DNA of 64,000 nt from an uncultured Planctomycetales bacterium (GCA_964612665.1 CAZTCI010000001.1:508896-572895), one strand, 5' to 3'. Numbered from the stretch's first letter, positions 1 through 42,000 are shown. Notes: generated by a model from the letters alone, not told the origin. Translations and numbers: made by a program.

Positions 1-3000
1 ATGCAGCACACTTCCTAAACTGTAGTAATTGGGAAGCGGTCGCGTTAAAACAGCGGTCAAGAGACCTTCGACCCAGGCGAGGCGAATGTCGACGTGCTCT
101 GTTAAAGAAGTGATTTGATAACCAGGCTGGCTTTTAATAAATTCCCACTGCTGCTTGATTTGACGCACAAATGAAACGACGCGGTCAAACACCGACTTGA
201 TTTCGCCAGCTATATTGTCGTGCTGTCTTTTAATTGTTTCGTTGATCTCTTTAATTAAGTCCATTAGGTTTTCATAACTGAACTCTTCTTTAATGGCCAA
301 TGAACTTTCTCTTTGAGTGGCAGCATCAGTTATCTCATCCCAATAAGACTGCACAGTTTCAGTAATAAGCTCCAGGGCGTTTCTCACATCATGCAAGCTG
401 AATAGCATTACTGCTTCAGTTTCTTTACCTTCTTCTTTATTCTCCGACGGAGGGATCTCCTCTCCAAAAAGACCGGCCACCAAATTACAGAGTCTTTCTC
501 GTCCAGCGATCTTCGGAATACGGATGACCTTACCTTTATAATCTTGGTTAGGTTCAACTTCAGTCCAGTATAAAGAATCTGTAATACCATACCCTCTAAA
601 ATCATAAGCCAGGATATCGTCGTCTTCACCACTTCGAATGATCATGGGATTAGGGAATCCGATTCTTTTCATTTCCACAATCAATTCAATGCCCGCATTA
701 TTCTTTCCCATCTGATTATCCGTCAACAATAAGTCAACGAGTTTTCCTTCTGCCAAAAGCTGATGATACGTTGATAAAGCCTTTTCCTTGTTGGCAGCCG
801 TATATACTTGATAACCTCTTTGTATTAAATCATTGGATATTGTCTCAAGCACGTCTTCGTCGTCGTCAACCAGCAAAATTAAGCGTTTATACGCCTGAAC
901 ATTGGGAGTTAAAATGGATAAAAGAACAATCATCATTAACCAATCTAACGACACAAAAATGCCTAATGTGGCTCTGGACTCCACTCGCGTTGAATTCTCC
1001 AACCCATTGAACCACCGTTCGACAATTAGCTCGAAATTCCGCAGTTTCGGATCGAATTGCGCTCTCATTTGGATCAGAAGCGATTGGATTTCCTCAATAT
1101 CTCTGAGCGAATTCATTCTAAAATCGGCTTCAAGAATTTTTCGTAAGGAATCAATTAGATATTGTTTCCCATCGGGGATAAAGGCCTTAAGTAATTCTAC
1201 GATTCTGGTCCTCGAGAATCCTCTATTCATCAAGCGCAAAACATGTTGGTTATTTAAAAAGGCCACAATATTAATTGCCGCAAGAATGTCGACATCTTCT
1301 AGGAGGAAAAGCATTTCGTTTAGTGAAATAAATTGCCCGGCTATTCTTAAATGCCAACTGAAAGAAGTCTTAAATTCTTCTTTTCTCGGCAGGCGATCCG
1401 CTTTATTTACAATCCGCATAAAACGCGCCAGCGAATTGATGCCCATTAGATAACCATCAAACGGTCCTTGTTTTAAGAGTTGCATTGCGAATATATCAGT
1501 CAAAAACTGCGGCGTAAGATCCTTTGTGTCCGTCGTCGAATAAAGTGGAGAGCTACGATTGAAAAGCTCTCGAAGGAACTCATAATAGGACAACACATTT
1601 TTCTGAATGTCCTGATAATCAGAAACTCCCGCATCAACAGCCAGCGCCACGGCCTGGCCAAGCAAAGCCAAGTACTGCGGCTGGCTGATTCCGACGGGTT
1701 CAGTGAGTCTCCATAAATCAGAAATTAGCGTGTCGACACTTACTGGAATATTATCTACCCCAATTATGTGCTTGAATCGATTGAAGCTGGCAGCGACCAG
1801 ATTCTCATCGTTCCTAGATTTATCCAACCAAACTTTCTGCCACTTTTCAACCGATGAGAAGAATTCCACCTGAACAGCCGCAGGTTGTCCAATATCAGCA
1901 TCTAAATTCTCCTCGAGAATACGACCGTTGCTCAACACCAAATAATTAACAGGAAGCATTCGGATATAATCCAAATACATCAAACGATCCTCATCCCTAA
2001 AATCTTCAATCGCCGGTTCGATGAGAATGATTTGGATCGGTACTTTGAGACCAAACACCGCCTGCATGAGGGCAATAGCAAACTTCTTAAAAATGCAGTC
2101 AAATGCGGTACTGCCGATCAAAAAGACAGTCAATTTCTTGGAGTCTCGCTCTTGATTTTCAATTAAAGATTTCAAAAACTGGGCGGTTGAATGTCGCGAA
2201 TTGCTTGCGTGCCAGCGCTGAATTATGCGGTCAGGGCCGACGGGAGGATTCTCCGATTCGATGGCCGAGGAGAGAATTTTGCAAGGTTGCTGTGCCACTG
2301 AAAGTTCTTTCACGTCAACCGTTTTTTGATTCCACAAAATGGAACGTAAAAGATTGCCTGCTATTTTTGCGGCACTTCCTTTTGGCGAAGCCGAATAATC
2401 ATTAACAACATCGATTCCAATGCCCCGTACCGCCGCGATAGCTCCTACTGATACGAACAAGCCTGTCACAGCGCTTAAAACTGTCGGCAAAATCTGCGCC
2501 AGCATCCATAGGAAGAAGGTTAGAATATCACCGTGGGGTAAAACGATCATTTCATAACTTTCTTCATCCGACGACATAAATAGTTCTTGACCTTCCAACT
2601 CTTCTTCTAACGATGACAGCCCTTGAAACTCCTGCGTCAGATGTTCCCAGCTAAGTGGTATCTGTCTTTCTTGTGCCTGTATCATGACCAACTTTGCTTT
2701 TTCTTCATCCACACCTAATTGTTGAGCCAGGGCTTTGGGATTATTAATTAGCTCGTACCATTGTTTTTCTGTTACTTGTTTTTGCAAACGCCAGTAGCGA
2801 AGTAATTCTTGGGAGTGACCAAATTTCGCTTCCAATAAGCGTTTAACCACGTTTCTAAAAACAGCTATTACCATGTTATAAGTTAACGCGCCTAGGGCCA
2901 TGAGATAAAATGAGAAATGGAAAGAATAAACTGCTTTTGCTTTTGCTTTTGCTTTATCTTTATCCATCTTGAACTCTGCATCGGTAAATGCCAGCAAATC

Positions 3001-6000
3001 TGTGAATATAGAAATTCTGACTTGCCATTGACTGGAAAGTTTATTCCACGCTGTTGGCTTGCCATCAAATGTAATGATTGATGGCAATTCGTAAGATTGG
3101 CCCTGGACTTCTGAAATCCAATATTGTCGTATCCGGGATTTACCGAGAAATGTTTCGTCACTTCCAACAACAACGAGTTCTTCGATCAGTAATATTTCGA
3201 TAAAAACTCCCTTATCTTTCGCATAATCCATAATAATAGCGGCGGCATTCAAGAGACAATCGCCATATTTCCCGCCGAGCAGAACAACCTGAATACCGTT
3301 TTCTTGGAGAAGGAGATCTAAGAATTTATAAATACGCTGACGGTCTTCTTTAGAAGATTCATGAATTTTTTCGGGCTTGGGTTCTTCTAATTCTTGAACT
3401 ACGATCCCACGCTTTTTTAATAAAGTAACCAAAGATTTAAAAATCGGCTGCATCTCTCTTCCCAAATCACCAGAAACGCTACGATAATCCCTAACTTCGA
3501 AAATTCCAATTGTGAGAGACCTGATTCGATTTATAGCTACAAAAGATTCTTGAGATGATGTGTATTGATTTCGGCGTTTTTGTCGTTGAATAATAATAAA
3601 CTTGCCAAATTCAAAGATAACTATGCCCAAAATAATACTAACCATTCCCACAGTAAATCCCAACATCCCGGCCGTTTCTTTGGTGGCCTTTAAATAAATA
3701 ACATCCGCCGATAAATCTTTATGACCACCCACATTGATAATCATCTGCTGTTCATACGCTAAAGAAAGCGCGGCCGCTTCGTTGATTTCAAATCCGGCGG
3801 ATTTGACCTGAGCGATCAGTTGGTCTTTAAGTTCGCCGAGCGGACCAAAGGATTCTTCAATCATTTCACCATTGAAGGAGACGAGATGTTTAGTTGCCTT
3901 AATAATATGTATTTCACCTCCATGGGAAAGGACGTTATAAACCTCAGATAAAACTATGGACGGCCTCGTCGATTCAAGCACGAAACTAAGCAAGGCCACA
4001 TCAAACGTCTCTGGCGCAAACGACAAATGCTGGGCGTCTCCATTCACCCAGAGACCATCGCTTACTGTGTGTTGCACGATGCGTATCTTTGAGAAATTAT
4101 TATCTAATCCAACAACGACATTCCCCTGTCTTCTTAACTTACCGGCGATGCCGCCGGAACCAGTACCTACATCCAAAATACGATGACCGCTCCCAATTTC
4201 CTGCAGATACCAAAACGAGAGCATAAAAGAATTATTAATAGTGTGCCGCAACAAATCCTCCAACGTTATGATGATGGGCTTACGCACGGCGGCAACAGAG
4301 ATCATTACTACAAGCAGCATCCATTTTATTAATCCGACGAACCAGATCATCGAAATCAAAGAATAAATATCTACATACAGCGAATTATATTGGCCTTGTT
4401 TATAATGTTCATTCGCACGCCTGATCAATTCTTCATGGATCCGATCACCAATCGGAATCATCCCTCGCCGGTGATTATCGGCCAAATATCCGAGCGCCTC
4501 TGCCAATGTTTGCGCGGCGATGCCGAAAAATAGGCGGACATCATTTGTGCCCATTATGCGGGCCGCGGGATTGGGCGCTGGGGGTTTTTCACGCGCGATA
4601 AACTGGCGGATTTCTTCCAGGACATTGAAGACTTCGGTGAGTTGTTTGAGTGTCTTGACCGATAAATGCGGTTGCGGTTCAACAAAGACAATTGAGTTGA
4701 CCAAGGCCAGCAGATGGTTTTGAATTTGATATGCATAATTATCCAGGTCTTTTATATTGGTCTGCTCGGCAACATGCATTTCATAATCTAAATCTTGATT
4801 AGGAAGATCAAGGATTTTGATCGACAACAGCCCTTTGTGTTGCATCTGTTCCAAAGCCGTGTACAAGGCGGCCATTGATTCCATGAAACCTTCACCCGAC
4901 GGAATATAAGTTTGATTCTTTAATTTCGGACCTTCGCTTCTCTTATCTTTCTTGGGCACAGACTCTTTCTGCGTGTAAGGTAAGAAAACGGCGCCTAATT
5001 TTTGGTTGTCTTTCTTGCCATAAAGGAAAAATTCAATCGCCAGCTGCGGAAAGACCCGGACCGTTTTGGGCAAAGCATCAATAGAAAATCTTTGTATTGT
5101 GACGTCCGCTTTCTTAATCGAGACATACTTGGGGTCCTTAAAGAAAATGACCGCTTCTCCATAATCCGTTGAAATCAGGAACTCAACCTTTTCGCCGGCT
5201 GCAAGATTTTGCTCAACCGCTTTCAAATTGATCGTCAATTCAGACTGGGAATTCTGTTCAAGTACTTCTTGTTGGGAGATCGGCTGTCGTCGAGGATGAT
5301 AAGAAGCAACGTCGAATGAACTTCCTTCCAGCAGCATAAGGATAGTTACGACCAAATAGATATTTTTGAAAAGTTGGAATGAAGATTTAAAGCGCGACGC
5401 GAAAACAGCAATTAAAACTAACACCGCGATAATTACCCAAAACTCTTGTGAATGAATAAGGGAAAAATTACTTCCCTCATCAACAGCATTCAAATCTCCA
5501 TTCTTGGCTCGAACTTCCCAAGTTTTATCAGCTTGTTGGTAAGAATTCTTTTGAATCGCCTCTCTAACTCTTTGAGTCAAATCATTTTCGTCGATGCCGC
5601 CAACGTCGATCCAATTCACGAAGGCAGCAATAATATGCTCCTGAAATTCCTCCGAACTTGCCGACATCCTCACTCCGATTTCCATAAATTCTTTGGCCGC
5701 CCTTTTGAGTTCTTCAATGGCTTGACTGCGTAATGACAAATCCTCGATGCTTCTCGCCAGCGTCCATCTCAGCTGATTGTTTAAATACCGTATGAACGTC
5801 TTTAATTTCTCCATATCTCCCTCGAGTAACTTAATTTTCCATAATTGATTGGCCAGCCGGCTGATCGTTTCAAATGCCTTTTGCCAGGTCTTTTCCGACG
5901 ATGAAAGCGAAAGACGCTCTGCCATTAAAAGCAAAGTCTCATCCAAATATTTCAACTCATTCGATGGATAAAAAAATAAATAGCTATCGTAATCATCCAT

Positions 6001-9000
6001 GCGTCCCATTGCGTGGCTATGATAAAGATCTCGCTCGGGAACAAGGGCGATATTCAAAACATAATCTCTGAACGGTGCTTTTTCATAACTGCAATTTTTT
6101 TCGTATCTAAGCCAACCATCGAGATTTTCCATCGCCATTGAAAAAGATCCACGAAGTCCCGGGTTCGCCCTCCAAGCAACGATTTTCAGTAAGAGCTCTT
6201 TCAGTTTGTGATTTTCAAGTAACCGGCCCGTCGCTTGTCCTTGCCAGTTTAGTTCTTCCACATTAAACAACATCTGCGCCAAATATTGCGGAATCGAATT
6301 TAGTCGCCCTTCGGTCCCCCAAAGATCCAGGGCATTTGTTGACTGAGGATCGTTCGAGATCGCAGGATCAAATGTTTTGAAGTCCAGCGCCTCTTTGAGC
6401 ATCCATAACGTTAGATCCTCATAAGTAAAATCGGAAAATCCGCCATTACGCAAAGACAACGGCTGCTGTAATTGTTCACTCATAACAAAATAAAGTCCGA
6501 TCAATCGTCGGAGGCCTTGAATCAGCGGCGGGAAGTCAATCGGATAAGTTCTTTCTTTATCAAAGTGCATTCCAATTGTTCGCACATGCAACAAAAAGAA
6601 TATCGATGTCCAGGCGGTTAACCATTGTTCTTTCAGTTGTCCACCTGCCCAAAACCACATTCGTCGGGTTCCTATTTCAAATGGTTCGACATCCTCAAGC
6701 GAAGCCAAGCGCACAATATCCTGATTGGGATGACCATACTTTGATAACCAGCCTCTGGCTTTCCAATACCGACGCAGACAATCGCCGATCAATGAAAGCT
6801 CTTGCTCCGAAAGTGGGAGCAAATGACCATCTCCTGTCTCACTATCCATTCTTTCAGAAGTAGCATTCACAATTAGATAACCTAAGAGCTTTGTGAAACG
6901 TTGACTCTCGTGAGTGAGAGAATCAAAAATGGTTGAAGCATTAGCATTATGCAGGCTATACAAAACATATCTTCTCTGCTTTTCGTTATAATGTTCCGTA
7001 TTCAAATCTATCTTAGAATCTAACGTAAATTCCCACGCAGGTGGAAGTAACATGCCTTGCGAATTGATATACCCTAGTTGAACAAGATCATTAAATAACT
7101 GTGGCAAGTCTTTGTCAGGAACAATCCCCTTAAAACTTTTCAAGCTTACCGCATCATATTGATCGAGGAGGTTTGTCAGTGTTTCGATCCATTGCGCAAC
7201 GGGCCGCGATGTATTCTGAGCATTGGAATCAGTTAAAGTAACTTTCTGCTGTCTGACTGAGAGACGACGCCAGAAACTCTCTCCCCATGACAACTTCAGC
7301 ATCATCAAAATCCCGAAGACAATCAGCGCAAGCCATCCCCAACTTCCTTCCGCACCCGTCGTTGGCCAGAGAATCAGATGGCTGCTCAATTCATTTCCCG
7401 ACGCTGATTGAGCACTCAACATCACGATCCCCATCGCAGCGGCAATCATTCCGCCGCGCAGGCGTCCCCAAAATCCTCGTACTAAGCGAATTGCTAACGT
7501 AACAACGAGACCCGCAGTAATGACGGTCAATAATCGATTGAGAATAGATTGCAAAAGGTTTGAAAAAATAGGGTTGTGCTGCAGGAAGGAAAGAAGCGGA
7601 GTATCTTTTTTGCCGACGGGCGGGGCGTTGGGCTGCATCTTAGCATAGTGCCACACAATCAAAATACTAACGCCAATTAAAATCAATAGATATTGCACGA
7701 GTGAGTAGGTGTCCATGTTGAAAATGTTATTTGTTTTAGTCTCCCGATCAAAACCTCCATCCCGTTCGGCGAGCATCAGAAAAGCCGTCTCGGCGATGTG
7801 CATGTCGCTGATGCCGTGATGCAGATAGATTTTATGCACGCTGCGCGTCGAAAGACCGTTTCTGACGAGGCCCAGGTCCCAAACGCCCTGTCCTAACCGC
7901 AACCGATCACCGATTCCAGCGAGAAACTCCGGCGATGCATCCGCGACGGTAACAACCGGGGTGAACTTCCGTTCAGTCTTTGGAATTAATTTTTCTAATT
8001 GTTCGAATAGATTTTCTCTTCCTAACCGTCCAAGAAGAAGATTGGGGCTCGTCACCACAATCACATTGGCGTAAATGGGATAATTTTTATGAAGTTTCAA
8101 AAGCTCGTCGGACGCGGACAAGGCGGCCTGGACCATAGGACCGATGGCGACGATGTTAACCACATTGTCATCGGGATGGTAATCAGGAAGATGGCTGTAA
8201 TCGACGAGCCGGTAACCGCCTTTGAGAATTTCTGGGCCGAGACGCTTGATGGCGGCGGGTTCATTAAGGCCGGAATAAGTTTTCTGTTCCCGCAACCGCC
8301 GGAACAATCCGCTGCGTTCAACCAACAGGCTCGATGCGCGGATATACACGGCGTTACGCCCGTGGTCATGGCCGGTCAACATAAGTTCAAAGGTTTTTTT
8401 CAATATATAATCTAACTCGTCAAGAAAAGCCGGTTCCCACATAACCGTGTTGGGCATCGCCCGGCCGATGTCCGCCGAGACACTCGATTGATGTTGAGCA
8501 CCGTCGGTGGCCAGCGTTGGGCCGGACGGTGTTCCGACAGCAATAAATTGTGAACCCCAGTACTGGGCGTAAAAAAATTGATCCAGCGCCCGGCGGAATA
8601 AAAACATATCATAGATCGTAACAACCGGAATCAAACGCACGCCAAACAAATCATAAGCCTTGCCAAAAGCCGCCGCCAAGGTCACGGCGTTCATTTCTGT
8701 AATGCCAATGCGTAAATGATTTCCCGCAAATGAATCGGCGCTGACAACACCTTGAGTGGCGCCAGGAGCAATCATTCCCGTAGATGATCCAACATCCGGA
8801 GAAATCGTGACCAACCGCGGCGCTATTTTCTGCCAGAAGCGATCGTCTTCGGAAAGGTCCGCCGCCGCCGATTGACTGAGTAGACCTTTCACCCTATTAA
8901 TCGACATACCCAGATATGTCTGCGTTGGAATTCTCCCGCGGGCCGGTGAATAAAGTTTTTCCGGCCAGATTTGATTCTTTAATTCTGCTTCAAACGCCGC

Positions 9001-12000
9001 GCGGTTTGCATCGATCATTTGCTGCGCTTCGGCGGCTTCATGATCTAAACGTGAACGGACATTCTTAAGTGTCTTAAACTCGACGGAAGTTTCATTGAAA
9101 TTGGGGAATGGATTATCTTGCGGCATGCCTAATTCGTTACGGACCTGCGCCAATTCTTCGGGAGTCAATAACTGCGAATGGTTTCCTTCCTGACCAATCA
9201 TCGGTCTTAGACCCCAGCCTTTGATCGTATGCGCAATAATTACCGTCGGGCGATCGCTGGCGCGGGCTTCGCTCAAGGCTTTGATTAACTCAACCAAATC
9301 ATGGCCGCCCAAATCGGTAAAGAGCTCATAGATTTTTTCATCGCTGTATTTCTTCAAGAACCGCTTTATTGGCCTTTTCCTTTCCAAAGAGAGTTTCTTA
9401 TTCTTATCATCCAAGGGAAAAGGCCTAATATTGACTTTTGTTTCTTCCTTTGGATTCACAAAAGTCAATAAAGAAGAACGTTGTTCGATCATCCAAGCGC
9501 GGATTCCGGCGCCGTTTTGAGCGGAAAGATTTTGGTAAACTTTCTGGTCGATTGTTTCCATAACTTTCCTAAAGACACTTCCCCCTCGTCGGGCAAAAGC
9601 CGCTTGCAATTTTCGGCCCCAGCGCAGTTCAACGACTTGCCATCCAGCCGCCGCGTACATTCCGCGCAGTTGATCCAATTTCCAGTTTTCGGTATTTCCG
9701 TCGAGTGATTGGCGGTTGTAATCGACAATATGCGTCACGCGGTCCAAGTTAAATTCTTTCACTAACGTCAGAATCTCCCGCAGGTTTCCTTCTTCAGATT
9801 CAGCATCACCCAAGACCGCGAAGAAATGCGAATCAGAAACCGCATGGCCATGCGCCTTGAGCCATTTCCAAACAACGTTAAGTGCTAAGGCAACCGCCGG
9901 CCCTATGCCAACCGAGCCCGTCGGAATTTTGACGCCGTCCGGGTCCGCCATTCCCGGATACGCGTGCAGGCCTGGTTTGTCTAATTCATCCGTGTTGACT
10001 TCCGGATGCTTGGCGATGAAGGCGGCTTTTAATTCTTCAAGTTCTTTTAAGACTTCTGGCGCAAGACGGCCCCTGATATCTTCAGCCCTGAAATCAACCG
10101 GCAGCCGGACAGCGTTATCACGCAAACGATAAAGTGTATCGACGGGTAATCGACCTAAAAGATATTGAATGGCATGATACACCGGCGCGGCGTGCGGTTT
10201 GTGGGCGACAAAATCATGACCGCGCATGACAGCCAGCTCGAGGGCGATCATAATGTGCAATGCAGACGCGGATGCAGCCTGGTGCCCGCCGGTTTTAGGC
10301 AGTTCATATTTAATTTTATTGGCTTCATCAATTTCACCGATTGAAATCCCAAGCGCCCGACGGGCGATGCTTTCTAAAGCTTCGATGTCCTTCGGTGCAA
10401 ATCCTTCCGGAATTTTATCATTTCTATTTCGGGGAGGCCGGTGTCCGGATGAGCTCATTGCAACAATCATCATCGTGGACAAGAACAACGCAGCCACATG
10501 TCCACCTACGAAGTAGGACACAGCCAATAGTCCATCCAGTGCCAGCGCGATGAGGACAAGCGCAGTTGCAAATACGGTGGAGAGGTTTTGATCTGAGCAT
10601 TCTTTTATTCCATTTTTTGTTTTTTTGGTTTCCTGAGCTGAAAACTTTTTCCACCAGGCAAACGTTTCACTCAAACCCGTCCCAATATTCTTTTGTCGTC
10701 TCAACTTGTTGACAATCAAAATGATTAATGTTATGTTGGCGTCGAAAAGATCATTGATCAATAATTGCGTGGCCCTCTTTGAAAGATGGGAGAATCGTAA
10801 GTGAAGATCTGGGAATTTGAATGGGACAACTGGAATATTGAGCATATTGCTAAACATTCCGTAAAATCTCAAGAGGTAGAAGAAGCTTGTTATCGCCGCC
10901 ACGTCGCTAAGAAAACTAAAGATGACATTTATCTTGTCTATGGTCAAACGTATTCTGGCCGTTATCTTTTCATCGTTATTAAATATAAATCTAAAGGAAT
11001 TGTTTACCCTATAACCGCTCGAGACATGACTGATTCTGAGCAGAGATTCTTCCTTAAACGGAGGTAACATATGATTAAGAAGTCTTCTGTAATCCCAAAA
11101 TTTAAGAATGTCGCCGATGCGGCTGAATTCTTCGATCAACATGATACGACCCAGTTTCTCGACGAATTGCAACCAGCGCATCTTAAGTTCCCTAAGCCCA
11201 AGCATCTTTTGATCACCTTGAAACCTAAACAAATAACGAGGCTCAGACGCTTGGCCGACAAAATGGGTAAACCTTCCGATCAAATTGTTGAGCAATGGAT
11301 CACCCAAAAACTTGCCGAAGGGTAATGATCTGCCCAATGTGGCACGGCTCAATTTCTTTACAATCTCTTTAAAAACGCCTTTCGCTTTATCTGAGGATTT
11401 GGTTCGAATCGTCAGTATCAACAGCAACACATCAACGGCCAACACAAGGAACATCAAATGTAATCCCGGTCCCGGAACAAAATATCCTTTAAACACAACC
11501 ACCGGACGTTCCTCATCAGGCAGAAAACCTAATTCCTCGCGGATCTCCTCGGGAGATATTCTTAAAATATGTATGGGCTGAGGATGATCTTCAAAATATT
11601 TTAAGAACAGGCTTGTAATCGTTTGTCCGTTATCAGAAGCAATATGAAGACGGCCCAGAATAAAAAACGTGTCTTTAGCAGCTTTTCGGCCGCGCGATAA
11701 GATATTGATCATATTGGGGAACATGAATGGTTCCCTTAGGTCAATAGCGAATCTAAAGTTCTCCGAGACATTGATCCCTTTCAAAATTTCTTGAACAGCG
11801 GGCTCGGCCTGGCCGACGACATGATTTTCGCGTTTGGCTCTGGCCATGAGGGCTTTTATAAAAACAACAGTCAAATCACGCCAAGTTGTCAAGTCTTTAA
11901 GCATGTCCGCTGAGTTATCCGGGGGCAATGTTACGATCGCGGAAAAAACGAGACTGTTCCGGGTGTTGTAATAAAGAGAAATGCGTCTGTATAACGTTGT

Positions 12001-15000
12001 AACAGGGTGCATATAGCCGGGAGGTAACCATTGGGCCAAATCCTGCCACGTGGGAAGGATGAACAAATTCAACGCAGAATGAATAAATCCTCTTTTTAGC
12101 GATTGCAGTTTATCTAAAGAAACCTTCGAAGGGTCGGACAGCCATTGTTCATATTGCAGATAGTCATCTAATCGGGTGGCCAATTCATAACTCAAAATCT
12201 CCTCGACGCCAAACAAATGTCCTTTGGTACTACGGTTAAAATGGGTCGACACATACCACAGTTCGTCTTCTTTAAACCGGGCCACTCCTTCGACACCCGC
12301 AAAGATTTTCTTGCGTGCGGCCAGGAGATGGATCTCTTCTCTAAATAATTCATGCTCGGGATTGGTATGGTTTTCCCCGATTAAAAACAATCGCGGTGCG
12401 GATTCGGGTTTCAGGCGGACAGCGAGGAAAATTAATGTGCTCAATAAAAACGTCAGGTTTAAACTATTATCGAAACCATGGACGGCAATAAAGAAGCTCT
12501 TGAAATTTTCAGTCTTTTCCAATTTTCTTGACGACAATTCTTTATTGATCTTGTTGCGTTCTGATGACACATAGGCCAGGACAGCATCCAAAAATTTTCG
12601 ATGGATTGAATCTGTGGGTTTTACAATACGGCCATATTCCGCATATAACGATACAGCTTTATCAAAGGAAACTTCCCAACGGAAGCTGACAGTCTTTTGC
12701 CAAACAATGATTTGGCCCCGCCCGACAGATGACAAGAAGGCATTGGCTTTCTCGTCCGACGGGTTTTTCCGCGCCTGCAGCAAAACACACTCTCCATTAA
12801 ATGGAGGATAAAGAACCATCCGGTAAATAAAACCCAAATCACCCCCAAATTTTTGTTTCCTAAATAAATTTTCCAGTGCCTTGAAATGATGTTGTCGGTT
12901 GGAAATATCTCCCCCTCCTTTAGGAAGATATCCGGCAGCAGCATTAATCTTTGACCAAATTGCTTGAACGGCTTTTTGTTTGACATTAAATCTTTCCGCT
13001 ATCTGTTGATCACTTAGACCTTCAACGAAACCATATAAAATATTCAATTGTTTTTCCGTAAATACTGGTTTTGCCACATCGAATTTTGGAAACGGAGGCC
13101 TCCGGTCGACAAGTCCTAACTTTCTCGCTTTTTTGATAAGTTCCCTTCGCTCCGACGTCACAGCCAACACTTTATAAAGTCTCGAAATCTTTGAGCGTAT
13201 ATTGATTGCCGGTGAACTCAGCGCCTGGCCGATCTCAATCGTAGTATTTCCTTTATTAAGCAATCTTAAGATATGAAGTTCAAGCTCACTTAGGATGAAC
13301 GCATGTTTTTTTGCGAAAAGTTGTTTAGGTTTAACCAGCCGCTCAGACGATCCGAAAATCGCCACGCGGTATTCTTCATGCTGATTGAAAAATTTCCAAA
13401 GAAGATAAGGGTAATCATTATTAAAGTCGCGGGGTCCGCTTTTAATTTCCAGATTTAAAAGTTGATGAATTTGGCTCCTTGACTTGCGGATGGTTTCGGA
13501 CCCTGTCTCAAGCTGAGCGGCAATGTCCTTGTCATTTAATCCAGCATAAAGGCCTTTTAGAATGGCTATGTGTCGCGAAGAGAGTTCTTCGACGGACGCA
13601 CAAGATTGAACGCTGCGCGCTATGGCCGCGAGGACAGCGACAAAGATAAAACTGAAATTGGATAAATAATCCGATGGATTTGTAAGGATAAAAAAGTTAT
13701 GCTCTCGCTGCAACCCTGGCAAAAGACTTTGATTATCTCTTTTACGAAAGACTTCAAAGGGTTGAACAAACATAAACTGCGCGCCCGCTGTTCCCCTGCT
13801 AGTTTTAAAAACTTCACTTTGCCTAATCTGATTATTCAACGCATCGAGCGCTTCTTTAAGCGGTTGCGAGGTAATCAAATCTTTCCAGCCTCTTAAGAAG
13901 CCTATCTGTTCGAGCGCGCCAAAGATCCATGGTTCTTCATCAAACACAATAATGGTATCACTAGACCTTAAATCCCTTAATGTATTAAGCAGCCTAACCA
14001 CGACTGGTTGATCGATCCAAAAAGTTCCTTTTAGAATAACAGTCACACTTTCTTGTCCAGCTCGACGTAGAAATTCGACAATATCATCCAGCGCGTTGTC
14101 GATGTGTAACGTTTCCTTAGGGTAAATTCTATTTAGCAAAATTTTTTCTGGCTCCATAAACTGATTCACGAATGATTGCAGCTCCTTATAAGCTCTTTGC
14201 CGGTCTTCATGGTCATAGAGCCGGTCAATTCCGAGGACCAATTGGGCCGGCAGCTCCGCCACAAAAATGTCAACGCCTATTGCGGGATAAATCCGATACG
14301 GTTTTAAGAGACCAACCGCCGCTAAGACTTCTAACTCTCGCCGCCAGGCCTCGGCCAATGGCCCATAATCAACGCTTCCCCGCGATGCCAACCGTCTGCC
14401 TTGTTCTTCAACTATCATGGAAATCGCTTGAATCTGCTGGAGAATTTCTTCTTCGGAAATTATTTTGCCTCCGGTCCGTCTTGTGCTCTTTCGTAACGCT
14501 CGAACCAAAAATATAACCAGCGCGCTAATTGAAATTAGAGCAGCTGCGGCATAAATAAAACCAGTATCAACTAACATCGACGATGATTCTGGATATTTCG
14601 CGTCATAAGTTTTCGCTAATTGATACAACGTCCGCTCTACACGGTCTTTAAGACGGAGGAATTGCCTTTCTGATAGGGTCAATGTCACCATTATCTCTGG
14701 CCAGGAGCATGTCAGAATATGATTATTATTGTTTTTCTCAGCGAAATCACTTTGGCTTGTATCACTGACCGCATCCATAAGGACTTCCAGTTCTAATAGC
14801 GCTTTGACAATTATCTGACTTGTTTCTTCACCTCGACGATAAACATCGGTCATATCTTGTTTGGTTGGCTCCAACCTTTCATCCGTTGAAGGTTCCGGAA
14901 CATTTTCAAGTTCCGTCTCAAAATCAAAAACTTGCTGCTCCAGTTCTCTTCCCTTCTTAACAGCCCAATCCAAGACCGACGCTTTATAAAACAAAAGTAC

Positions 15001-18000
15001 AAATTTCGGCCCGCGCAAATTATGCTTTAAAATATTTAAAATCCTTTCGGCTTCTTCTTGCATCTGGACATAAGAAATCTGGTCTTCATAAATCTGACCC
15101 ATGAGTATCTCAATCAGCTTTCGTTGATCTACATTTATTCTTTCCTCTCTCCAAATTCTCTCGAGGATTGAAGATGTTCCCGACAACTGGACAACCGGCA
15201 TCAGAGTCTCATAAAATTGAAACACCCTCTTTATCATTTCTGATATTTTTTCTGTTCTTTGTCCTTCATGCTGAGGCTTGAACCAAATATCGACTTCCGA
15301 CGTCACAATAAAATTCTTCATCTCTTCGTAATTGGTATTGATCTTTTCTCGAAAACTCTCAATCTTTTCTAATATAACGTTAAAGACTTTGTCCCACCCG
15401 ATTTCAGCTTCGGTTTTGTTTTCATCGGCCGATTTTGTGTCTCCCTCTCGATCCCCTGCTATGCCTTCCGAATGATTTTCAGTGACGATTACCACTATCA
15501 CTGCTCCCACCCACAACATAAAAGAAATGACCGAGAGATCTAAGAAGGAATGCTCATTGTTCCGGTTTCTGTTTCTGAAATTTCTCCTCCGGCCTGATGA
15601 ATTAAATCTTTCTGTCAACCGCCGTAGATCCTCTAAGTTTGCACTCATGCTCAAACCGTAGTCATTAAAAATATCTCTCAGCGTTTCGGTGACTTTGGAA
15701 ATTCCAGAAAAATCGACCTCTTGGCTCAATGAAAGCATTTCCAAGTTATATTGCCGCAGCCAGCCCTGAAATTCCGCGGGGGTGATTCCACGGGATTCCA
15801 AAGCCTCCCAAAGCCGGAGTAATACAATTCCCATTTCTTCGATTGTTTCCGATTGCTGCCGTTCTATTAAATATTCTCCGCTTGTCGCGGGTTCTGGCAA
15901 TCTTGCCGGTTTTTTTCTTGTTTTTTCCGGCCGGGGAATTCTATGGCGAGGAAAGGCATTGTAAACAGCGCGCTGTATATTTACGAGTTCAGTCACTCCG
16001 CTGCTGATGGCATTTTCAGCCGCATGCAATGCCTTTGTGAATTTACTCCGGCTGGAATTGAAAGACTCGAGGAGCCATGGAATAACTTGTTGGTTCAAAA
16101 TTTCTTCACCACGGCGTCTGGCTTCTTCGCTTAAATTAACCTGATGGGATAAAGAAATTCTCTTATTCATCCAGCGGTCTGCGACGACTAATCCTAAGAA
16201 TTTATATTCAGGATACTCATAAAGATAAACACTGTAACGCGGCTCGTCTTCATTCAATTCGACTAACCGGTATGACCTGCCTTCGCCCCGAAAATCTTCA
16301 TAAATTCCTTCACCCAAATCTCTCAAAGAAAACCAGACAAACTCTCCATCTCTAATCTTGAAGATATCCTCCAGCCATCTTCTTTCTTTTGTTATCTGAA
16401 CGAAATACTTTCCGGCCTGCAATTCTTTGGGGGTGGAATTTTGGGGATTAGGTTTCCGGCGTGTGACTAATGTAAACCACAGCCATTCACTCTGATCGCC
16501 GCGTGCCGTAACGATTTTGGCTTTCAGGGAAACATAACCTCGAGTTCCCCATGAATACCAAAGATCAGCGAATCCGCCTAAATACGCGTCTCCGACGTAA
16601 ATTTTATCTAAACGGTAAAGACCTGTAGATACTCTTGGGTCAACAGCTTCAATCCCTTGGCCTTTCTTAATAATCATGTCGAAACCCTTGCGGTGAAAAT
16701 CAGCGATGTCTTTTCTCACATGACTACTCCGCGCTTTAAGCAGCTTTTGTTGCTTTCCTTGAATGCCCCAATAGTGAAGAATCGGGGAACGTTGTAATTT
16801 TCCGCCGATATTTTCTTCAAACCATACCGCAACATACTCGGAATAAACTGAAGACCAGCGCAGCCCTAAGTTTCCATAACGCTTTCGGACTGTAAACGTC
16901 GAATATCTTTTTCCAAAGAGCGGAATCTTTCCGTCGGCGGTAGTTTTAACATTCTCAATCTTAAGCAATTCATATCCTTGGGCAGACCATCGCTGCGCCA
17001 GTTCAAGACTAATGACACTGTATTGGCCCAAATTTTTTTCACGTTGTCCTTCGCGTTTCGATCCTTTAACGACCAGAATTAAACGCTGTTGACGATCGAC
17101 CTCATGCAGCACCATTTCCTGCTTCACTCTTCTCCATAATTTTGTCCACAACCGTATCCAATCTCGACGGCGCGGATAAATCCGTCCAATTTCAATATCA
17201 TTAATAACTCTGGCACTAATGTCTGCCAAAAGGCCGGCGTCTTTTTGGGACATTCCTAATGACTCCCGCACGGCTTTTAATCTCTTCCCTGGTTCTTGAT
17301 AGAAGTGATCCAACAATATCTTCCAGTCTCGCACCCCCCATCTTACCCGTGCCCCTTTTTCTAATCCCTTAATTTTGAAAGGAGTGGTATTGGATAAGTC
17401 AGCGATTTTTTGCGGCGAGAGTTCTAATATATTCCTGAATAACTTTAACTCTCGTCGGGCTTCTTCATACATTGTATTCAACAATAATGCCAAATCATCG
17501 GCTTTCCATCTGGCATTCTTTGACTTTAAATCATTAATTCTATTTCTACTGATATGCGCAAGAGCCGCGAGTTCTTCTGGCGACATTCGCAAAGCTTCCC
17601 GCAATATCTTTAATTGCCGACCGGCCTCTTTATGCAGTTTATTCAATATAATATTCCAACGGTCAACACTCTCCCTAACATGACCATTCTCTAAAGCACT
17701 AATGCGTCTGGCCCTAACCTTGCTCAAAGCACCAACATCTTTTGCCGTCATTCTCAAAGACTTTCTTAATACCTTTAATTGCCGATGGGCCTCTTCATGC
17801 AGGTCCTCGAAGTTCCATAATTCCGATCGGGACATGTTGAGTAATTCTCTGGATCTCTCTAACAGTTCAATCGATTTTTTATCATCTTGCCCCTGTCTTT
17901 GGGAAGAAGCCGCCATGCCAAGAATCACTAAGGATAAAACGGAGTATACCATCCATAAATTGCTTATAATTTGAACAACCGTTAAGATAATAATCGTCGT

Positions 18001-36000: not shown

Positions 36001-39000
36001 CTTATCTTGAATAAGGTCAATTAAACGGCTCTGTTGCTCACGGCTTAAATATCCTCTGGAATGACGTGGCATGCCCAAGATCGTATTGACAGCGGCTTCA
36101 TCTCTTTGCTGAGGAGCCCAAATAATTTTAAGTTTAGACTCTTTAATAACCGGCACAGGAGGATTCAGCCCGTACCATTTCTTCATTTCATAAAGAATTT
36201 CTACTGAGCTTTTTCCTTTTAGATCGTGATTTTTTGCCCAGTTCAGCAGAAGCCCCTCTAAACATTTTCCTCCAAACCCTGGAATACCTGTATGAATAAT
36301 ATCGCCCACTTTTAAATCTACTATCTTCCCTGCACGGCGATGATTGGCTAGATGTTGAAGGATCGCCCATTGCAACCGCTCTTCAAGTTTGTCCCAGGAG
36401 AATTTCCTCGCCCGTCGGAATTGATCCAATACCGTTTCCAATTCTTCAAGGGTTACTGGTTTTTCTTCTGCCATCGTCATAAGAACAGCAGATGCGCAGA
36501 GGACTGCTATCCACGCTTCCGCACCTACGAGGTGCTGATGGGTAACCATGGCGACGAAAGCGGCGGAAATGATGATAAAGCGGAAGACTCCGTCGAGGAA
36601 ATCATTCAGTCGGCTGGGTTGAACAAATACAATTCGACGCAAAATGGAATTCACATTGTCTTGGCCGACATACGCAAGCGCCGCCGCAATTCCTACCAGA
36701 ACAAAAATCCATAAGGATGGACCAACGGCCATCAGTTTTATCTCTCGATCCCAAAACTGACTTGGCCCACACCGGCGGACAACAAATTTCTTTTCCAAAT
36801 CCTCTTTGACCGTCGTCACATCTTCTTGGACGATCGCGTCCGCCACACGTAAAGAAAATCCCATTTGCAGGGCCTGACGGCCGGGCATGGATGGGCTATA
36901 TCTCAAGCGAAGCCCCTGAATCAACGCGCGATAGGGCGCTTCCTGTCCCCGGAGAAACTTAAGGAAGGCAAACTGTTTGATTTCTTTGGTGGATACGGAG
37001 GTTTCAATATTATTTCTAAGATACGCTAAAAATTCTTTGTAATAACTGACCCAGTGCTCAAGGATTCTTTCCAGCCCCAACTCATTTAATTGTTTGTTCA
37101 AACGATTTGTGTTCCCAAAGACCAAATCTGTCGGTTTAAATTTATCAAATGTATCGGAGGTAATAGGACTCAATAAACAGCGCTCATTTAACGTTGATAC
37201 ACTGAGCTCATGCTTTTCGCCCCCGATTCTGACCCACCGCCCCAATCCCCGTCGGGCCAGGGCAATGAGATATTCGGGTTCGATATCAAATTGATCTTTC
37301 CCTTGATAATAAACGTGAATGTCCAGGTCCTTGATCATGGACCACAATGGGATTTGATTTTCGCTAAAAAGATAGGTCGAGGAGCCGGTGACCGTGATGA
37401 TCGGAGCCTCCACAATGGATAACGTAGCGACTTGCTTTAGAAGTTCGATTAAATCGACCGGCGGTAAAGCTGGATTGTCTGGCTGAACAATAAACTGGCG
37501 CTCAGGACGATAGTAGGAAATGTGTTCATCTTGGTCCACGATCAAAACAGGCCAATGCACTGTTTGGACCGCCGCCAGTAATATCAGCGCGTAGACCGCC
37601 TCGTTCAAACCGATCAGATCTCCGTGGGCCAAAAGACCGGATAAAGCCGCGAGGATGGCGATAGGGCGGAAGAGTTGTGCGATCAACCTGCGGGAGTGAA
37701 CAGACTTGATAAAGCGGAAAATTCCGTCGAGGAATAACATCACCCTCTCCGACGGCGGCGAAGTCTTGAGAAATTCGTAAAACGCGCGGAGGTTTTCAAG
37801 GATGACGCGGGATTTGGAGATTAGAACAGCGGCCATCAAAACAATAATGAGAATTTCCGCGAGGTGAAACACATTATTCGACGAAAAATTTGATTTTCTC
37901 GTCGGTCTTATCCGTGCAGTCGAAAGGAAATCGATTCGATGGGCGTTCAACGTCGCGGCATCTAATAATTCAAACCCTGGGAATGTTTGATCGACGATAT
38001 GTTTAATCAAATCCGCCAACTGATCCGCAGGGATTTTGATTAGATATCCTGGAATTCGGTGCATCTGCTGAGGACTAATTTCCCTCATCTCTTCTGCAGT
38101 CAAAAATTGAACCGCGGCCATCGATACAACCCGGCCTTCTAATCTGTTGACAGTCCATTTTCGCGACATTATACTTTGAATCGAAAAGGAGATAGATTGA
38201 TGACTTCTCTTCAAGATGCTATGAAAATCATTAAACCGCTTCAAAACCGTTTCAAGAAAAGCCATAAGTCCAGAAGAAAAACGAAGATTGCCGACGATCT
38301 TTTGGGTGCGTTCAAAGGTGCGACCGAAGGTAAATCTTCCAGTCAATGTGTTCGAGAATTGAGAAATTCTTCTTATGGTAAGTTTAAATAACCCTTCCTT
38401 GCTCTTGGACTCCGATGTCCTTGTCAGCTGGTTGACGCTCGAAGAAGATATTCTTACCCATAAAAAGCTCTGGGAAGCTCCCCACAAAATAATGACAATG
38501 GTTGAGGAAAATTCTTCTCTCGGTTGTTCAACGATTATCAATCTTATGGAAATCAGGTTTGTGTTGCGTGCTAAGAAGAAATTCAGTGAGCATAAGATTA
38601 CATCTTCTCTTAATAAACTCTCCGAGATTCTGAAGCTATTCATTCCAGATGAAATCAACCTATTAAAGGCGAATGAACTCCAGTCCAAATATCTTTCATT
38701 ATCGCCAACCGACGCTATCCTTCTGTCTGTGGCCACAACCCTAGACAATGTTGTCCTAATCACCCGCGATCGAGAATTATTGAAAGCTGCCTCAAAAATT
38801 GTCTCCGCATCAACTCCTGAAGAATTTCTGGCGAAACGCTGATCTCTTCTGTTCCAATAAAAATTCCCCACCAGCATTGCAATTAGCCCAACCACTCCCT
38901 TAAACACAATCCAAATAAAGCGGAAAATTCCGTCGAGGAATAACATCATCATCTTCGACGGCGGTGAGGTTTTAAGAAGTTCGTAGAACGCGCGGAGGTT

Positions 39001-42000
39001 TTCGAGGATGACGCGGGATTTGGATAGCAGAACAGCGGCAACCAAAATAATGATTAGAATTTCCGCGAAGTTAAAGGAGTTATTCGTTGGAGAATTCGAT
39101 TTACCCGTCGATCTCGTGGCGAGAGCTCTGCTGTCCTGAGATCTTCTTTCTGTGGTGACGAAAGTTCCTACCCTTCTTAAAATTTTGATAACTCTATCCC
39201 TTCCCTGAAGGTTATTAGAACTCTGTCGAGATTGGGGTTGTTCAACGATCGGCAAAGTGACGAAAAAGCTGGCGCCCTGGCCCAACTCGCTCTCCACATC
39301 AATCTCTCCATTGTGCGCCGTAATAATGCTTTTCACAATGTAAAGTCCCTGGCCGGTCCCGTCTTTTCCTTTCGTCGTGAAATATGGCTCGAAGATTTTA
39401 GAGACCAGCTCGGGCGCGATCCCGGGGCCATTGTCTTTCACCTCGAATTGCACGAGGGGCGCATTGTCGATTGGCGTGACGATCAACTCAATCTTTCCGT
39501 CTGGTATCTGCGCTAAGGTATACACCGCATTCTTTAGGAGATTGATAAACGCATGCGTCATCTGAATTTGTTCGACATCGATTCTAATCCCGGCGGCAGC
39601 GGAAAAATCAATCTGAAGTTGCTGTGGATCGAAGAGAGCGAAGATCTCTTCAAAATGTCCTCTAAGATTAGTCAAGAATTCCTCGACGGAAATGACTTTC
39701 TTCTTACCTTTCCCGGAATAACTGAGATAAAAATCAATGATTATTTTAAGCCGGTGGGTAACGCTGTGGAGGGTTTTGAGGACTTCACGCTTGGCTTTAG
39801 GCTCAACGATACCTTGATCGATATTTTTGTCTTGCGGATGCTGGCGGAAATCTTTGACGAGCTGCTTCCAGGCGCGATGAAACTTTTTCAGTTCAGGTAA
39901 ATCATCGAGAAGGATTTGCAACGCCAACATAATTAACCTTTCGCGCTGTTCTTGTGTAAACGGTTGGGCATAATTTTCAAGCACCTGTTGTAATGCCGGA
40001 TTGAATAACCCACCTATTGGCCTTTTCTCTCTTAAAGATAAGGTTGTTCTGTCATGCTCGGGGAGAAAAGGCCTAATACTAGACTTTTGCAATGCAAAAG
40101 TCAGTAATAACTCCGCTCGCTGTTCTCCTGTAAGCAGCTCAGCATATTTTTCAAGCATCGCCCGTTTTAATTCTGGGTTTGATAATGACTGAATATCGAC
40201 ATAAGGTTGATCAGATGCGGCATGGTTGCGAAGAATCTTCAAATCATTAATTTTCTCGAGAAGATTTAAATCCATAATATTCTCACTCAAAGATTGCATA
40301 GCGGATTTGAATGGTTCCGGCAAAATATCGGCATTACCGTTTGCCGGATCAAAGAATAAAGTAATCACGGTCAAATCATTGCCGATTTCATGCAGGAAGA
40401 CCGGCCCCAAATCAGCGATGATCCCCTGCCAATAATCTTCTTTTGGTATCCGCATTACCATAACGACAACCATCGATAGTCCCAGCAGCCAATTGAACGG
40501 CATAATGTATACGGCGTTTCTCTCGGTTGGGAGCTTCATAAATACATATTCCCTTCTGGCCACTGTCTGAATTTCAAGACCAAGCGGCTTTCGGTTTAAC
40601 GTTTTGAGCATTTGGGTGATAAAGTTTATCCGCCGCAAAACTGATGTGATCGGCATGCTGCTGCCATCACCCAACGTCGTCCCTGGTTTTTCTTCCAGCA
40701 GCATCTCCATGGTCTGCCCAATAACTGTCAAGGCCCCGGACAGATTTATGACGACGGGCCCGTCTGTAATAGAATTTCTAAACGCCGTCCCCATCACATT
40801 GCTTTTCCGCACTAAAGCGATCAAATCCTTGGCCTTTGGTGTCGTATCATTGCCAAACACAGGGTCGGATTCTGCCTCCTGCTTGACGTTTAGCATTGCT
40901 TCCAAAATCAATCTTGCGGACTCGCGTGCCCGTGTCGGATCTCCTAACGCTTCGCGTTGGCCATTAACAAATTTAACGAACTTAACCAGCTCCGTGCGCA
41001 GAGCCTTAATCCATTGCGGCCATTCTAGGTAATAAAATAATTGTTCCAGGACTGCCATAATAAGGAGCGTGCGTTCTCCGACGGGTTGGATTGGATTTCT
41101 AGATATTTGTTCTTCTTTCTGTTCAATGTCTAGAATCAAATGCCAGACTGGCTCTACAAATGCTTTCCTCTCAAGCAAGCCCCTTGTATATTTGAAGAAA
41201 TCATTCTGAGATTCATGATGACGCAATACTCGACGGGCAGCCAAACGGGCCATGGGATATTTCATGGAGCCGATTAAATCAGTCAACGTAAGATAATTTT
41301 TTACAAAGCTGCGCAATCCTGGCTCTTCAATCAATCCTTTAAACTCAATCAGCTCGGAAATAAAACGGAAATAGAAAACAAACCGTTCTCCGCCGGCCTT
41401 ATAAAGGATCCGTTTCCTTCCCGTGGCGGAAATAGGCCTATCATTTAAAACTTCGATCAGCCAAGCAGCGATCAAAAGTCTTAATGCCTCCATGTCCTCA
41501 TCCTCAACCGGCCCACTTAAAATCCACGCGCGTTTTTCGTCGGTGGAAAGGGCCAGGAGATTATCGAGACCAGTATACTGGCCGCGCACCGCCATCAAAA
41601 ATACCGGAGCGCTCAGCAACATCAAAGACATTCCCATCCATAAAACGGTTTTGATGGCGAGTATAACCAACATCAATCCGCCCACGGCGCCGACCAAGGC
41701 GATGGAATGCAATTTCTCCTCGAGCTGCGCGATTTTATTTTCTATTCCATTTGTCTTTTCAGATTCTTGGTCTTTCTTCCCGTTTCCATTCAATTCAGTG
41801 GAATACGCTGTCAGAGTGAATAATTCTTTTAAGTCCTCTTCCCATTGCTTATGAAAAGGAAGGCTCTCTGCATATTCCTGGAAGAGACCTGCGCGCAGCT
41901 GACGCCACACCATATGGTCGAGCAAGACCTGACCATTGATGACAAATGCCTGCGCAAAGTGTCTTAATTCCTCGACGTAGGCCGGATATTTCTGTGAGAT

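Follow-up and report, generated by a model that had tools for sequence, protein, structure and literature searches.

The stretch of DNA analysed here comes from an uncultured Planctomycetales bacterium (GCA_964612665.1, CAZTCI010000001.1:508896-572895), is 64,000 nucleotides (nt) long and is called the window throughout. Six-frame translation shows that frame 1 of the reverse complement holds 0 stops in these 64,000 nt, that is, 21,333 codons open at both ends (1-63999, minus strand), and that each of the other five frames of the window contains between 849 and 1,344 stops. The window therefore covers an internal part of a single giant gene on the minus strand, which has at least 21,333 codons and is longer still as a whole. 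Every Pfam domain found in scans of 5,000- and 1,000-amino-acid (aa) tiles falls in this frame, and a stop-free span of 64 kb with in-frame domains rules out that the frame is an artefact or non-coding. Among these domains are an ATP-binding domain of histidine-kinase type and a CheY-like receiver, and because the frame has no stops both of them lie in one open reading frame (ORF) that runs off the ends of the window. We favour, with moderate confidence, the explanation that each belongs to a signalling module with its own anchor, and that the protein is a giant mosaic of the type catalogued in the Omnitrophota.

Giant bacterial genes are a class that has been recognised only recently and is poorly understood. 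This work is a residue-level analysis of kinase and receiver domains in one giant gene, and the passages of the published catalogues cited below give none. Such chains are argued to be strings of individually anchored, gene-like modules and not integrated pathways. A relay in cis within one of them, if true, would be a new way of wiring signalling.

All features described below are on the minus strand, and residue i of the translation corresponds to plus-strand coordinates 63997-3(i-1) to 63999-3(i-1). The GC content lies between 41 and 51%, and the GC skew on the plus strand is negative throughout the window. By Kyte-Doolittle hydropathy the chain contains 88-94 hydrophobic segments, one per approximately 230-270 aa; hydropathy is a crude predictor of transmembrane (TM) helices, so that this number includes some false positives such as the β1 strand of a Rossmann fold that was called TM.

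The two signalling modules

The kinase part of the chain, here called module A, has its HATPase_c or ATP-binding (CA) domain at residues 8144-8251 (39247-39570), where Pfam PF02518 matches with an E-value of 8.8e-22 and 78-82 bits against a cut-off of 26.4. All four boxes are intact: the N box FINLLKNAV (nt 39523-39549), the G1 box VKDNGPGI (nt 39418-39441), the F box IFEPYFTTK (nt 39370-39396) and the G2 box GTGQGLY (nt 39340-39360). When this domain is aligned with 31 ordinary histidine kinases (alignment A1), 15 of the 15 invariant columns are kept (N305, N309, D341, G343, G345, F355, P357, F359, T361, G366, G368, G370, L371, G383 and G394), and the overall identity to the aligned kinases is only about 30-35%. 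Full retention at this level of identity argues for selection on nucleotide binding; the domain appears to be under evident constraint and module A probably binds ATP. All 1,465 sequence matches of the kinase region in a word-indexed search of 5.8 G proteins are histidine kinases, and so are all the sequence matches of the CA domain in the PDB (E about 1e-17). The AlphaFold2 (AF2) model of the domain has a predicted local distance difference test score (pLDDT) above 90. No match to HATPase_c_2 was obtained with Pfam, either in the whole frame or in the isolated segment. A local profile search at maximum sensitivity, with all filters off and with profiles made from the retrieved homologues, detects exactly one CA and one receiver (REC) domain in the 21,333 aa.

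Module A opens with M7821-KLPTERN, which is followed by a hydrophobic anchor at residues 7829-7851 (40447-40515; Kyte-Doolittle mean over 19 aa of 1.94). The sequence AAGGGA is found 10 nt upstream of the ATG of M7821 (window about 40537-40565), and this pair may represent a ribosome-binding site and start that are vestigial or internal. Anecdotally, the beginning of the module resembles a small anchored kinase gene fused in frame.

The candidate H-box of this module, H-box A, is FLHEIGNDL (40372-40398), with His7870 (codon nt 40390-40392) as putative phospho-acceptor. It was located by means of a position-specific scoring matrix (PSSM) and of a DHp profile built from 87 homologues, which selected FLHEIGNDLTVI (H7870). 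With the core H-box PSSM this site ranks first among approximately 21,300 positions with 18.4 bits, a score that 0 of 200 protein shuffles reach; the significance applies only to the core versions of 9-19 columns, and with a 28-column H-box PSSM the score is not above the shuffle maxima. A count of H-boxes by regular expression (two against 0.03 expected) was not relied on, because the pattern had been designed after both sites were seen. H7870 is placed 19 residues after the anchor and 285 aa before the N box. In ordinary kinases the His of the H-box stands about 110 aa (about 105-115) before the N box, and H-box A is displaced approximately 170 residues upstream of this normal position. H-box A is separated from the CA-proximal hairpin by a helical insert with two related units in it (39928-40179), recognised by sequence inspection and predicted as helices by AF2 (pLDDT 55-73). 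These units are NPELKRAMLEKYAELLTGEQRAELLL (nt 40102-40179) and NPALQQVLENYAQPFTQEQRERLIM (nt 39928-40002), and no homologue covers the stretch in the alignment of the retrieved kinases.

Beside the CA domain, AF2 and Foldseek place a DHp-like helical hairpin at residues 8016-8095 (39715-39954), whose helices (model residues 168-205 and 219-247) have pLDDT values of 58-76. Ahead of the CA domain, homology to ordinary kinases continues for about 70 residues, through the X-region and as far as DHp helix 2, and the model of module A superposes on whole DHp+CA structures such as HK853 (Foldseek TM-score 0.66-0.70, about 247 columns), the top Foldseek match being LvrB (PDB 8vc9). From this agreement of alignments and models, a DHp hairpin directly N-terminal of the CA domain is considered present with moderate confidence. 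Its canonical phospho-acceptor position holds no His and has Leu or Asp instead, and the H-box of the homologues falls opposite ILLDDL or LQQVLEN in BLAST and MAFFT alignments. HisKA, HisKA_2, HisKA_3, HWE and H-kinase_dim gave no match at E<=10 in isolated segments or at E<=0.05 in 1,000-aa tiles of the window. The phospho-acceptor arrangement of module A is, in its sequence, atypical; by its H-box, the module may autophosphorylate on H7870.

The second signalling domain belongs to module B. A hydrophobic anchor at residues 21009-21034 (898-975; Kyte-Doolittle mean 2.36) is followed seven residues later by the CheY-like receiver, residues 21041-21141 (577-879), so that each of the two modules begins within 7-19 residues of such a strong segment. 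Pfam PF00072 matches the receiver with E-values of 3e-9 in the whole-frame scan and 1.3e-10 in the isolated segment (37-42 bits against a cut-off of 30.2), and alignments to PhoP and YycF were obtained in the PDB. The acidic pocket D21045-D21047 (DDD) is kept, the acceptor D21094 (codon nt 718-720) stands where β3 ends and occupies an invariant column (D65 of alignment A2), and S21123, part of MIIRSGE, is paired with the T of LLTG and is the last residue of β4 in the AF2 model. This model consists of β1-β5 and α1-α4, with pLDDT values of 86-97 over β1-β4 (model residues 11-90) and 50-69 over α4-β5, and it compares with solved receivers (CpxR, KdpE and YycF) at Foldseek TM-scores of 0.75-0.81. 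The column of the conserved Lys of β5 (CheY K109) contains Q or W in the MAFFT alignment, and both the Pfam and the local REC profiles end before it; in the AF2 model β5 is DSLY, followed by W. One BLAST alignment pairs K21157 (DYKGKV, a 'DYxxKP'-like context) with the Lys of KP after an insertion of about 12 aa. Taken together, alignments and model lean towards a receiver without a clear conserved Lys.

The receiver is followed by a helical hairpin that is tentatively assigned to residues 21190-21289 (133-432) from the DHp profile, MAFFT and AF2. It contains the H-box-like motif LHDVRNALE (nt 370-396, His21203), 62 residues past the end of the Pfam receiver match. The DHp profile aligns residues 21203-21279 to its positions 25-100, and MAFFT aligns H21203 with the His that is invariant in 17-22 REC-HisKA-HATPase proteins. 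The part after the receiver is predicted by AF2 to form two long helices, at model residues 161-202 and 213-260 (pLDDT 48-66). Profile and model suggest that receiver and hairpin form a REC-DHp unit cut by the edge of the window, and 25 of the kinases retrieved with module A have the order REC-DHp-CA. The H-box at H21203 is a tentative candidate, weaker than H-box A.

The locations given in the preliminary description of this DNA agree with these results. It had reported a HATPase_c domain with N, G1, F and G2 boxes at 39.24-39.96 kb, an interval whose upper bound takes in the DHp-like helices, and a receiver at 0.6-0.9 kb, some 38 kb or 12,800 aa downstream in the same ORF; the receiver lies 12,790 residues C-terminal of the CA domain in the one stop-free frame. 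The conservation of the phospho-acceptor Asp, which it had proposed as a check, is borne out by D21094 together with the DDD and S21123.

Relatives and known systems

Searches with several parts of the chain brought up no close relative, and the window contains no marker genes. In the kinase region the word-indexed search of 5.8 G proteins retrieved only ordinary kinases, at most 52% identical and over the CA domain only, and a scan of GTDB with one genome per species gave ordinary kinases only. The same 5.8 G-protein index yielded two weak matches for the receiver region and one for a SecA-like ATPase region encoded upstream of the kinase (residues 6766-7224, about 42330-43700), in which Pfam detects PF07517 (E 8e-6) and PF21090 (E 1e-4) and, beside it, no scaffold/wing domain (SecA_SW). 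An exhaustive phmmer search with this region against 1.84 G representatives reached a best E-value of just 1.4e-11. Its matches include a few long fragments, for example the partial protein MFA5339993.1 from a metagenome-assembled genome of Candidatus Omnitrophota. This is a weak match (E 3.6e-6), and ordinary SecA proteins score equally high in the search. Two scans of JGI metagenomes produced no relative, including of the duplicated XRE unit described in the last section. The closest relatives of the receiver are the C-terminal receivers of hybrid kinases. The CA domain and the receiver have their nearest homologues in different proteins, so that nothing points to a common origin of modules A and B, and this possibility was rejected.

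The giant proteins of the Omnitrophota, as the cited passages describe them, are encoded by ORFs of tens of thousands of codons, have TM helices every few hundred residues, at roughly one per 250-370 aa, and carry divergent SecA_DEAD domains without scaffold/wing (10.1101/2023.11.21.568195; 10.64898/2026.06.07.730766). The present chain is similar in that one ORF runs for more than 20,000 codons and encodes a hydrophobic segment per 230-270 aa, and in having a highly divergent SecA_DEAD/P-loop_SecA region that lacks the SecA scaffold/wing. It also resembles them in its varied cytoplasm-type Pfam domains, including PF02518, PF00072 and PF08241, which are among the commonest in the catalogue passages, in its diverged internal duplications and in its having essentially no sequence relatives. 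Related to this, about 80% of such giant proteins are stated to be sequence singletons (10.64898/2026.06.07.730766). The same source, in the part cited, defines a class 1 of 'multi-enzyme', TM-only giants with domains facing the cytoplasm (Nielsen & Lui 2026, 10.64898/2026.06.07.730766). It counts PF02518 in 136 and PF00072 in 105 of 779 Pfam-positive Omnitrophota proteins of at least 10 kaa, and assigns HATPase_c and Response_reg to different co-occurrence modules of the catalogue, on chains that are mostly anchored by TM helices and face the cytoplasm (10.64898/2026.06.07.730766). The corresponding passages of West-Roberts et al. 2023 also list HATPase_c within the top 20 domains and mention giant proteins with CheY-like receivers (10.1101/2023.11.21.568195). 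According to these passages, HATPase_c and receiver domains in giant genes are already on record at catalogue level. The stretch analysed here differs in being unusually rich in helix-turn-helix (HTH) domains (XRE, σ70 r4, LuxR), which are absent from the catalogue passages, and in that its 21,333 aa show no glycosyl-transferase, peptidase, dockerin or NUDIX domain. Judged by its sequence and by the passages cited, its architecture matches that of the membrane-anchored giant proteins catalogued in the Omnitrophota.

Three smaller systems are also useful for comparison. Module B recalls the REC-DHp-CA proteins of LvrB type (Leptospira LvrB, PDB 8vc9, and REC-HisKA-HATPase proteins of about 385-415 aa such as P0111 and P0018), with which it shares the order receiver, linker of approximately 50-60 aa, H-box helix and second helix, and the invariant column in which H21203 stands; many such proteins are found among the homologues of the module A CA domain. 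Unlike these proteins, module B is located behind a membrane anchor and inside a giant chain, its H-box is degenerate (HDVRNAL, without Pro), its receiver has no clear Lys, and no N-box Asn is present at the expected start of the CA domain, where the window ends. Hybrid kinases and multistep phosphorelays (ArcB, BvgS and RcsC/RcsD, with DHp-CA-REC-HPt order) are alike in that kinase core and receiver are in one polypeptide. However, in hybrid kinases tens of residues separate the receiver from the CA domain that precedes it, and the relay is completed by an HPt domain or protein, whereas here receiver and kinase core are not adjacent, the gap being 12,790 aa, there is no detectable HPt and the receiver has its own downstream helical unit. 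Finally, phosphotransferases of Spo0B/ChpT type consist of a DHp with the His and a degenerate CA-like domain that does not bind ATP. The DHp-like hairpin of module B, with its His and the following sequence without N-box Asn, is comparable to them, a likeness that concerns about 45 terminal residues in a low-confidence alignment, with no profile or structural support.

One relay or two modules

In the reading that we favour, about 80-90 hydrophobic segments would thread the chain through the membrane, and many unrelated domains of cytoplasm type would hang in the intervals; the two signalling domains would be parts of two separate modules, each of which begins right after an anchor. The layout of module A (residues about 7821-8262) is that of a small membrane-anchored kinase: Met, hydrophobic helix, H-box, helical region and intact CA domain. 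Module B (residues about 21009 to beyond 21333) consists of an anchor, the receiver and a putative long helical hairpin with a second H-box-like motif, in the order REC-DHp(-CA) known from 'hybrid response regulators' of LvrB type, the window ending where a CA domain would begin. By analogy with those proteins, a REC-DHp(-?) unit is the most economical reading of module B. A helical hairpin of its own, with an H-box-like motif, comes after the receiver, which therefore looks like the input domain of a second REC-DHp unit and not like the terminal acceptor of the upstream kinase; from the arrangement of the sequence, the receiver's most likely role is to regulate the helical unit that follows it, and not to be a partner dedicated to module A. 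We infer that both signalling units were acquired, or have been retained, independently of each other within a mosaic giant protein.

Several points weigh against this explanation. Phosphorylation of the receiver by module A would be compatible with all the data presented here, and the membrane topology is deduced from hydropathy, a crude predictor. The geometry of H-box A relative to the CA domain is not fixed in the AF2 model, where the H-box A segment has pLDDT values below 50 and shows no confident packing on the hairpin or on the CA domain. With regard to module B, the PSSM rank of H21203 is only 4 to 59 depending on the width and is significant at no width, and the helices after the receiver have the low pLDDT of 48-66 mentioned above. 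Besides, the post-receiver segment has no Pfam match to HisKA, and no Asn is found at the aligned N-box position within the last residues of the window (LLTAVLTR). No orthologous giant gene was found in any collection searched. A test of TM parity, intended for the question of whether both modules are on the same membrane face, was set aside because simple hydropathy miscounts, a Rossmann strand being taken as TM.

The preliminary description went further and suggested that the giant gene encodes or captures a complete sensory relay. This would mean that kinase core and receiver are cognate partners in a phosphorelay in cis, from His7870~P to Asp21094 and possibly on to His21203, which we consider unlikely. 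Both domains do share one polypeptide, whose 21,333 aa hold no second CA or REC domain; the CA domain and the pocket around the acceptor Asp are intact, the H-box is significant, and the two modules, each right behind an anchor, could meet at the membrane surface; the origin of the receiver's closest relatives, C-terminal in hybrid kinases, points in the same direction. Nevertheless, the 12,790 aa between CA domain and receiver contain numerous anchors (roughly 55-60 segments by hydropathy) and over ten unrelated domains (by Pfam), the modules have no common origin, neither an HPt nor a HisKA profile is matched, the Lys of the receiver is missing or displaced, and the chain continues past the window, where other partners may exist. 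PF02518 and PF00072 are, moreover, in different co-occurrence modules in the catalogue passage cited (10.64898/2026.06.07.730766). An HPt domain between the two, which the preliminary description had proposed to look for, was searched for, and no match to PF01627, to related families or to any other phosphotransfer profile was found in 5,000-aa tiles, in 1,000-aa tiles at E<=0.05 or in isolated segments at E<=10; the motif H.[LIVMF]KG has two matches, which is chance level, and one of them is inside the transketolase domain. An H-box upstream of the HATPase was indeed found in H7870, with high significance but displaced to 285 aa before the N box and with no HisKA match. Both domains are genuine and keep most of their catalytic residues; the canonical His is replaced, the Lys is doubtful and no phosphotransfer profile is matched. 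A complete dedicated relay in the chain is not demonstrated, and the idea as first put forward is partly supported. A more elaborate version, in which a membrane-tethered His-Asp-His relay in cis would run from module A to D21094 and then to H21203, on a Spo0B/ChpT-like DHp that no longer binds ATP, and would then reach partners that the window does not include, possibly controlling the HTH, σ4 and LuxR modules of the chain as a self-contained regulatory network in one protein, appears to us very unlikely.

At the other extreme, one or both domains could be non-catalytic relics or pseudo-domains, namely a pseudokinase without usable His and a pseudo-receiver without Lys, with a structural or interaction role. 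The Leu or Asp at the canonical His position, the missing HisKA match, the insert of about 170 aa between H-box and CA-proximal hairpin, the end of the Pfam and local REC profiles before the β5 Lys and the Y/W that AF2 puts at the end of β5 would fit such a loss. However, catalytic residues are not missing from both domains, as they would be if the signalling assignment were wrong in the sense of the preliminary description: the CA domain is fully intact, with every invariant ATP-binding residue kept at only 30-35% identity, and the receiver keeps its DDD, D and S. The H-box match is far above chance, and the alternative alignment sets K21157 in a 'DYxxKP'-like context, so that we regard this explanation as quite improbable. 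It has also been considered whether the HATPase_c domain might belong to another GHKL class outside two-component signalling, such as the anti-sigma-factor Ser kinases, MutL, GyrB or Hsp90-like proteins; a Sigma70_r4_2 domain (E 1e-8) and a weak PhyR_sigma-like match in the same ORF, together with the absence of HisKA, are what speaks for it. This was rejected and is hardly credible, since all 1,465 sequence matches and all the PDB matches are histidine kinases and the model superposes on whole DHp+CA structures. The F box and the lid with the G2 box are of kinase type, the homology does not end with the domain but goes on upstream for about 70 aa, as far as DHp helix 2, and HATPase_c_2 is not matched. 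As it stands, the gene with its two anchored modules is a well-characterised orphan example that offers H7870, D21094 and H21203 as targets for mutation.

Other domains and internal duplications

Besides the SecA-like region, XRE HTH units and TPR repeats are encoded upstream of the kinase. Between the two modules there are a σ70 region 4 (Sigma70_r4_2) at residue 10631 and XRE-type HTH domains at residues 11687, about 12600, 15463 and 15571. They are accompanied by a DAO/NAD(P)-binding Rossmann fold at residues 14504-14565 (about 20300-20490; E 2e-9), a LuxR/GerE domain at residue 16805 (E 1e-14, in three stretches), a transketolase or pyruvate dehydrogenase E1-like domain at residues 18014-18535 (about 8400-9960; E 1e-23) and an S-adenosylmethionine (SAM) methyltransferase at residues 19934-20038 (about 3890-4200; E 5e-14).

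Diverged in-frame duplications are found at several points of the chain. A tandem duplication of an XRE-type HTH unit of about 198 aa (43957-44550 and 44959-45549) has 77% aa identity between its copies, both of which start with MS(K/E)PIKHLL, like a whole small gene that had been captured. Right after the kinase module, a pair of hydrophobic segments at residues 8296-8362 and 8698-8764 (about 38910-39110 and 37700-37900) is 78% identical. These similarities support the growth of the chain by duplication and by in-frame accretion of gene-like units, a mode of growth that would therefore fit modules A and B as separate units.

Some further observations concern the chain as a whole. Pfam places HTH modules at residues about 1382, 6248, 6581, 10631, 11687, about 12600, 15463, 15571 and 16805 (nt about 59700 down to about 13450), and at least ten DNA-binding HTH modules (HTH_3/19/31, Sigma70_r4_2 and GerE) stand in a chain with many hydrophobic segments. 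So many putatively membrane-tethered DNA-binding domains are odd and unexplained. Cysteine makes up just 0.2% of the residues of the 21,333-aa translation, and a weak UbiA-like membrane segment lies at residues about 15214-15374. Other internal paralogous segments are residues 13683-13724 and 14054-14095 (64% identity) and residues 15390-15492 and 15493-15603 (36%), and the TM motif W-(I/L)-x-(I/V)-x-x-K-G is repeated at residues 8358, 9928, 11168 and 11576.

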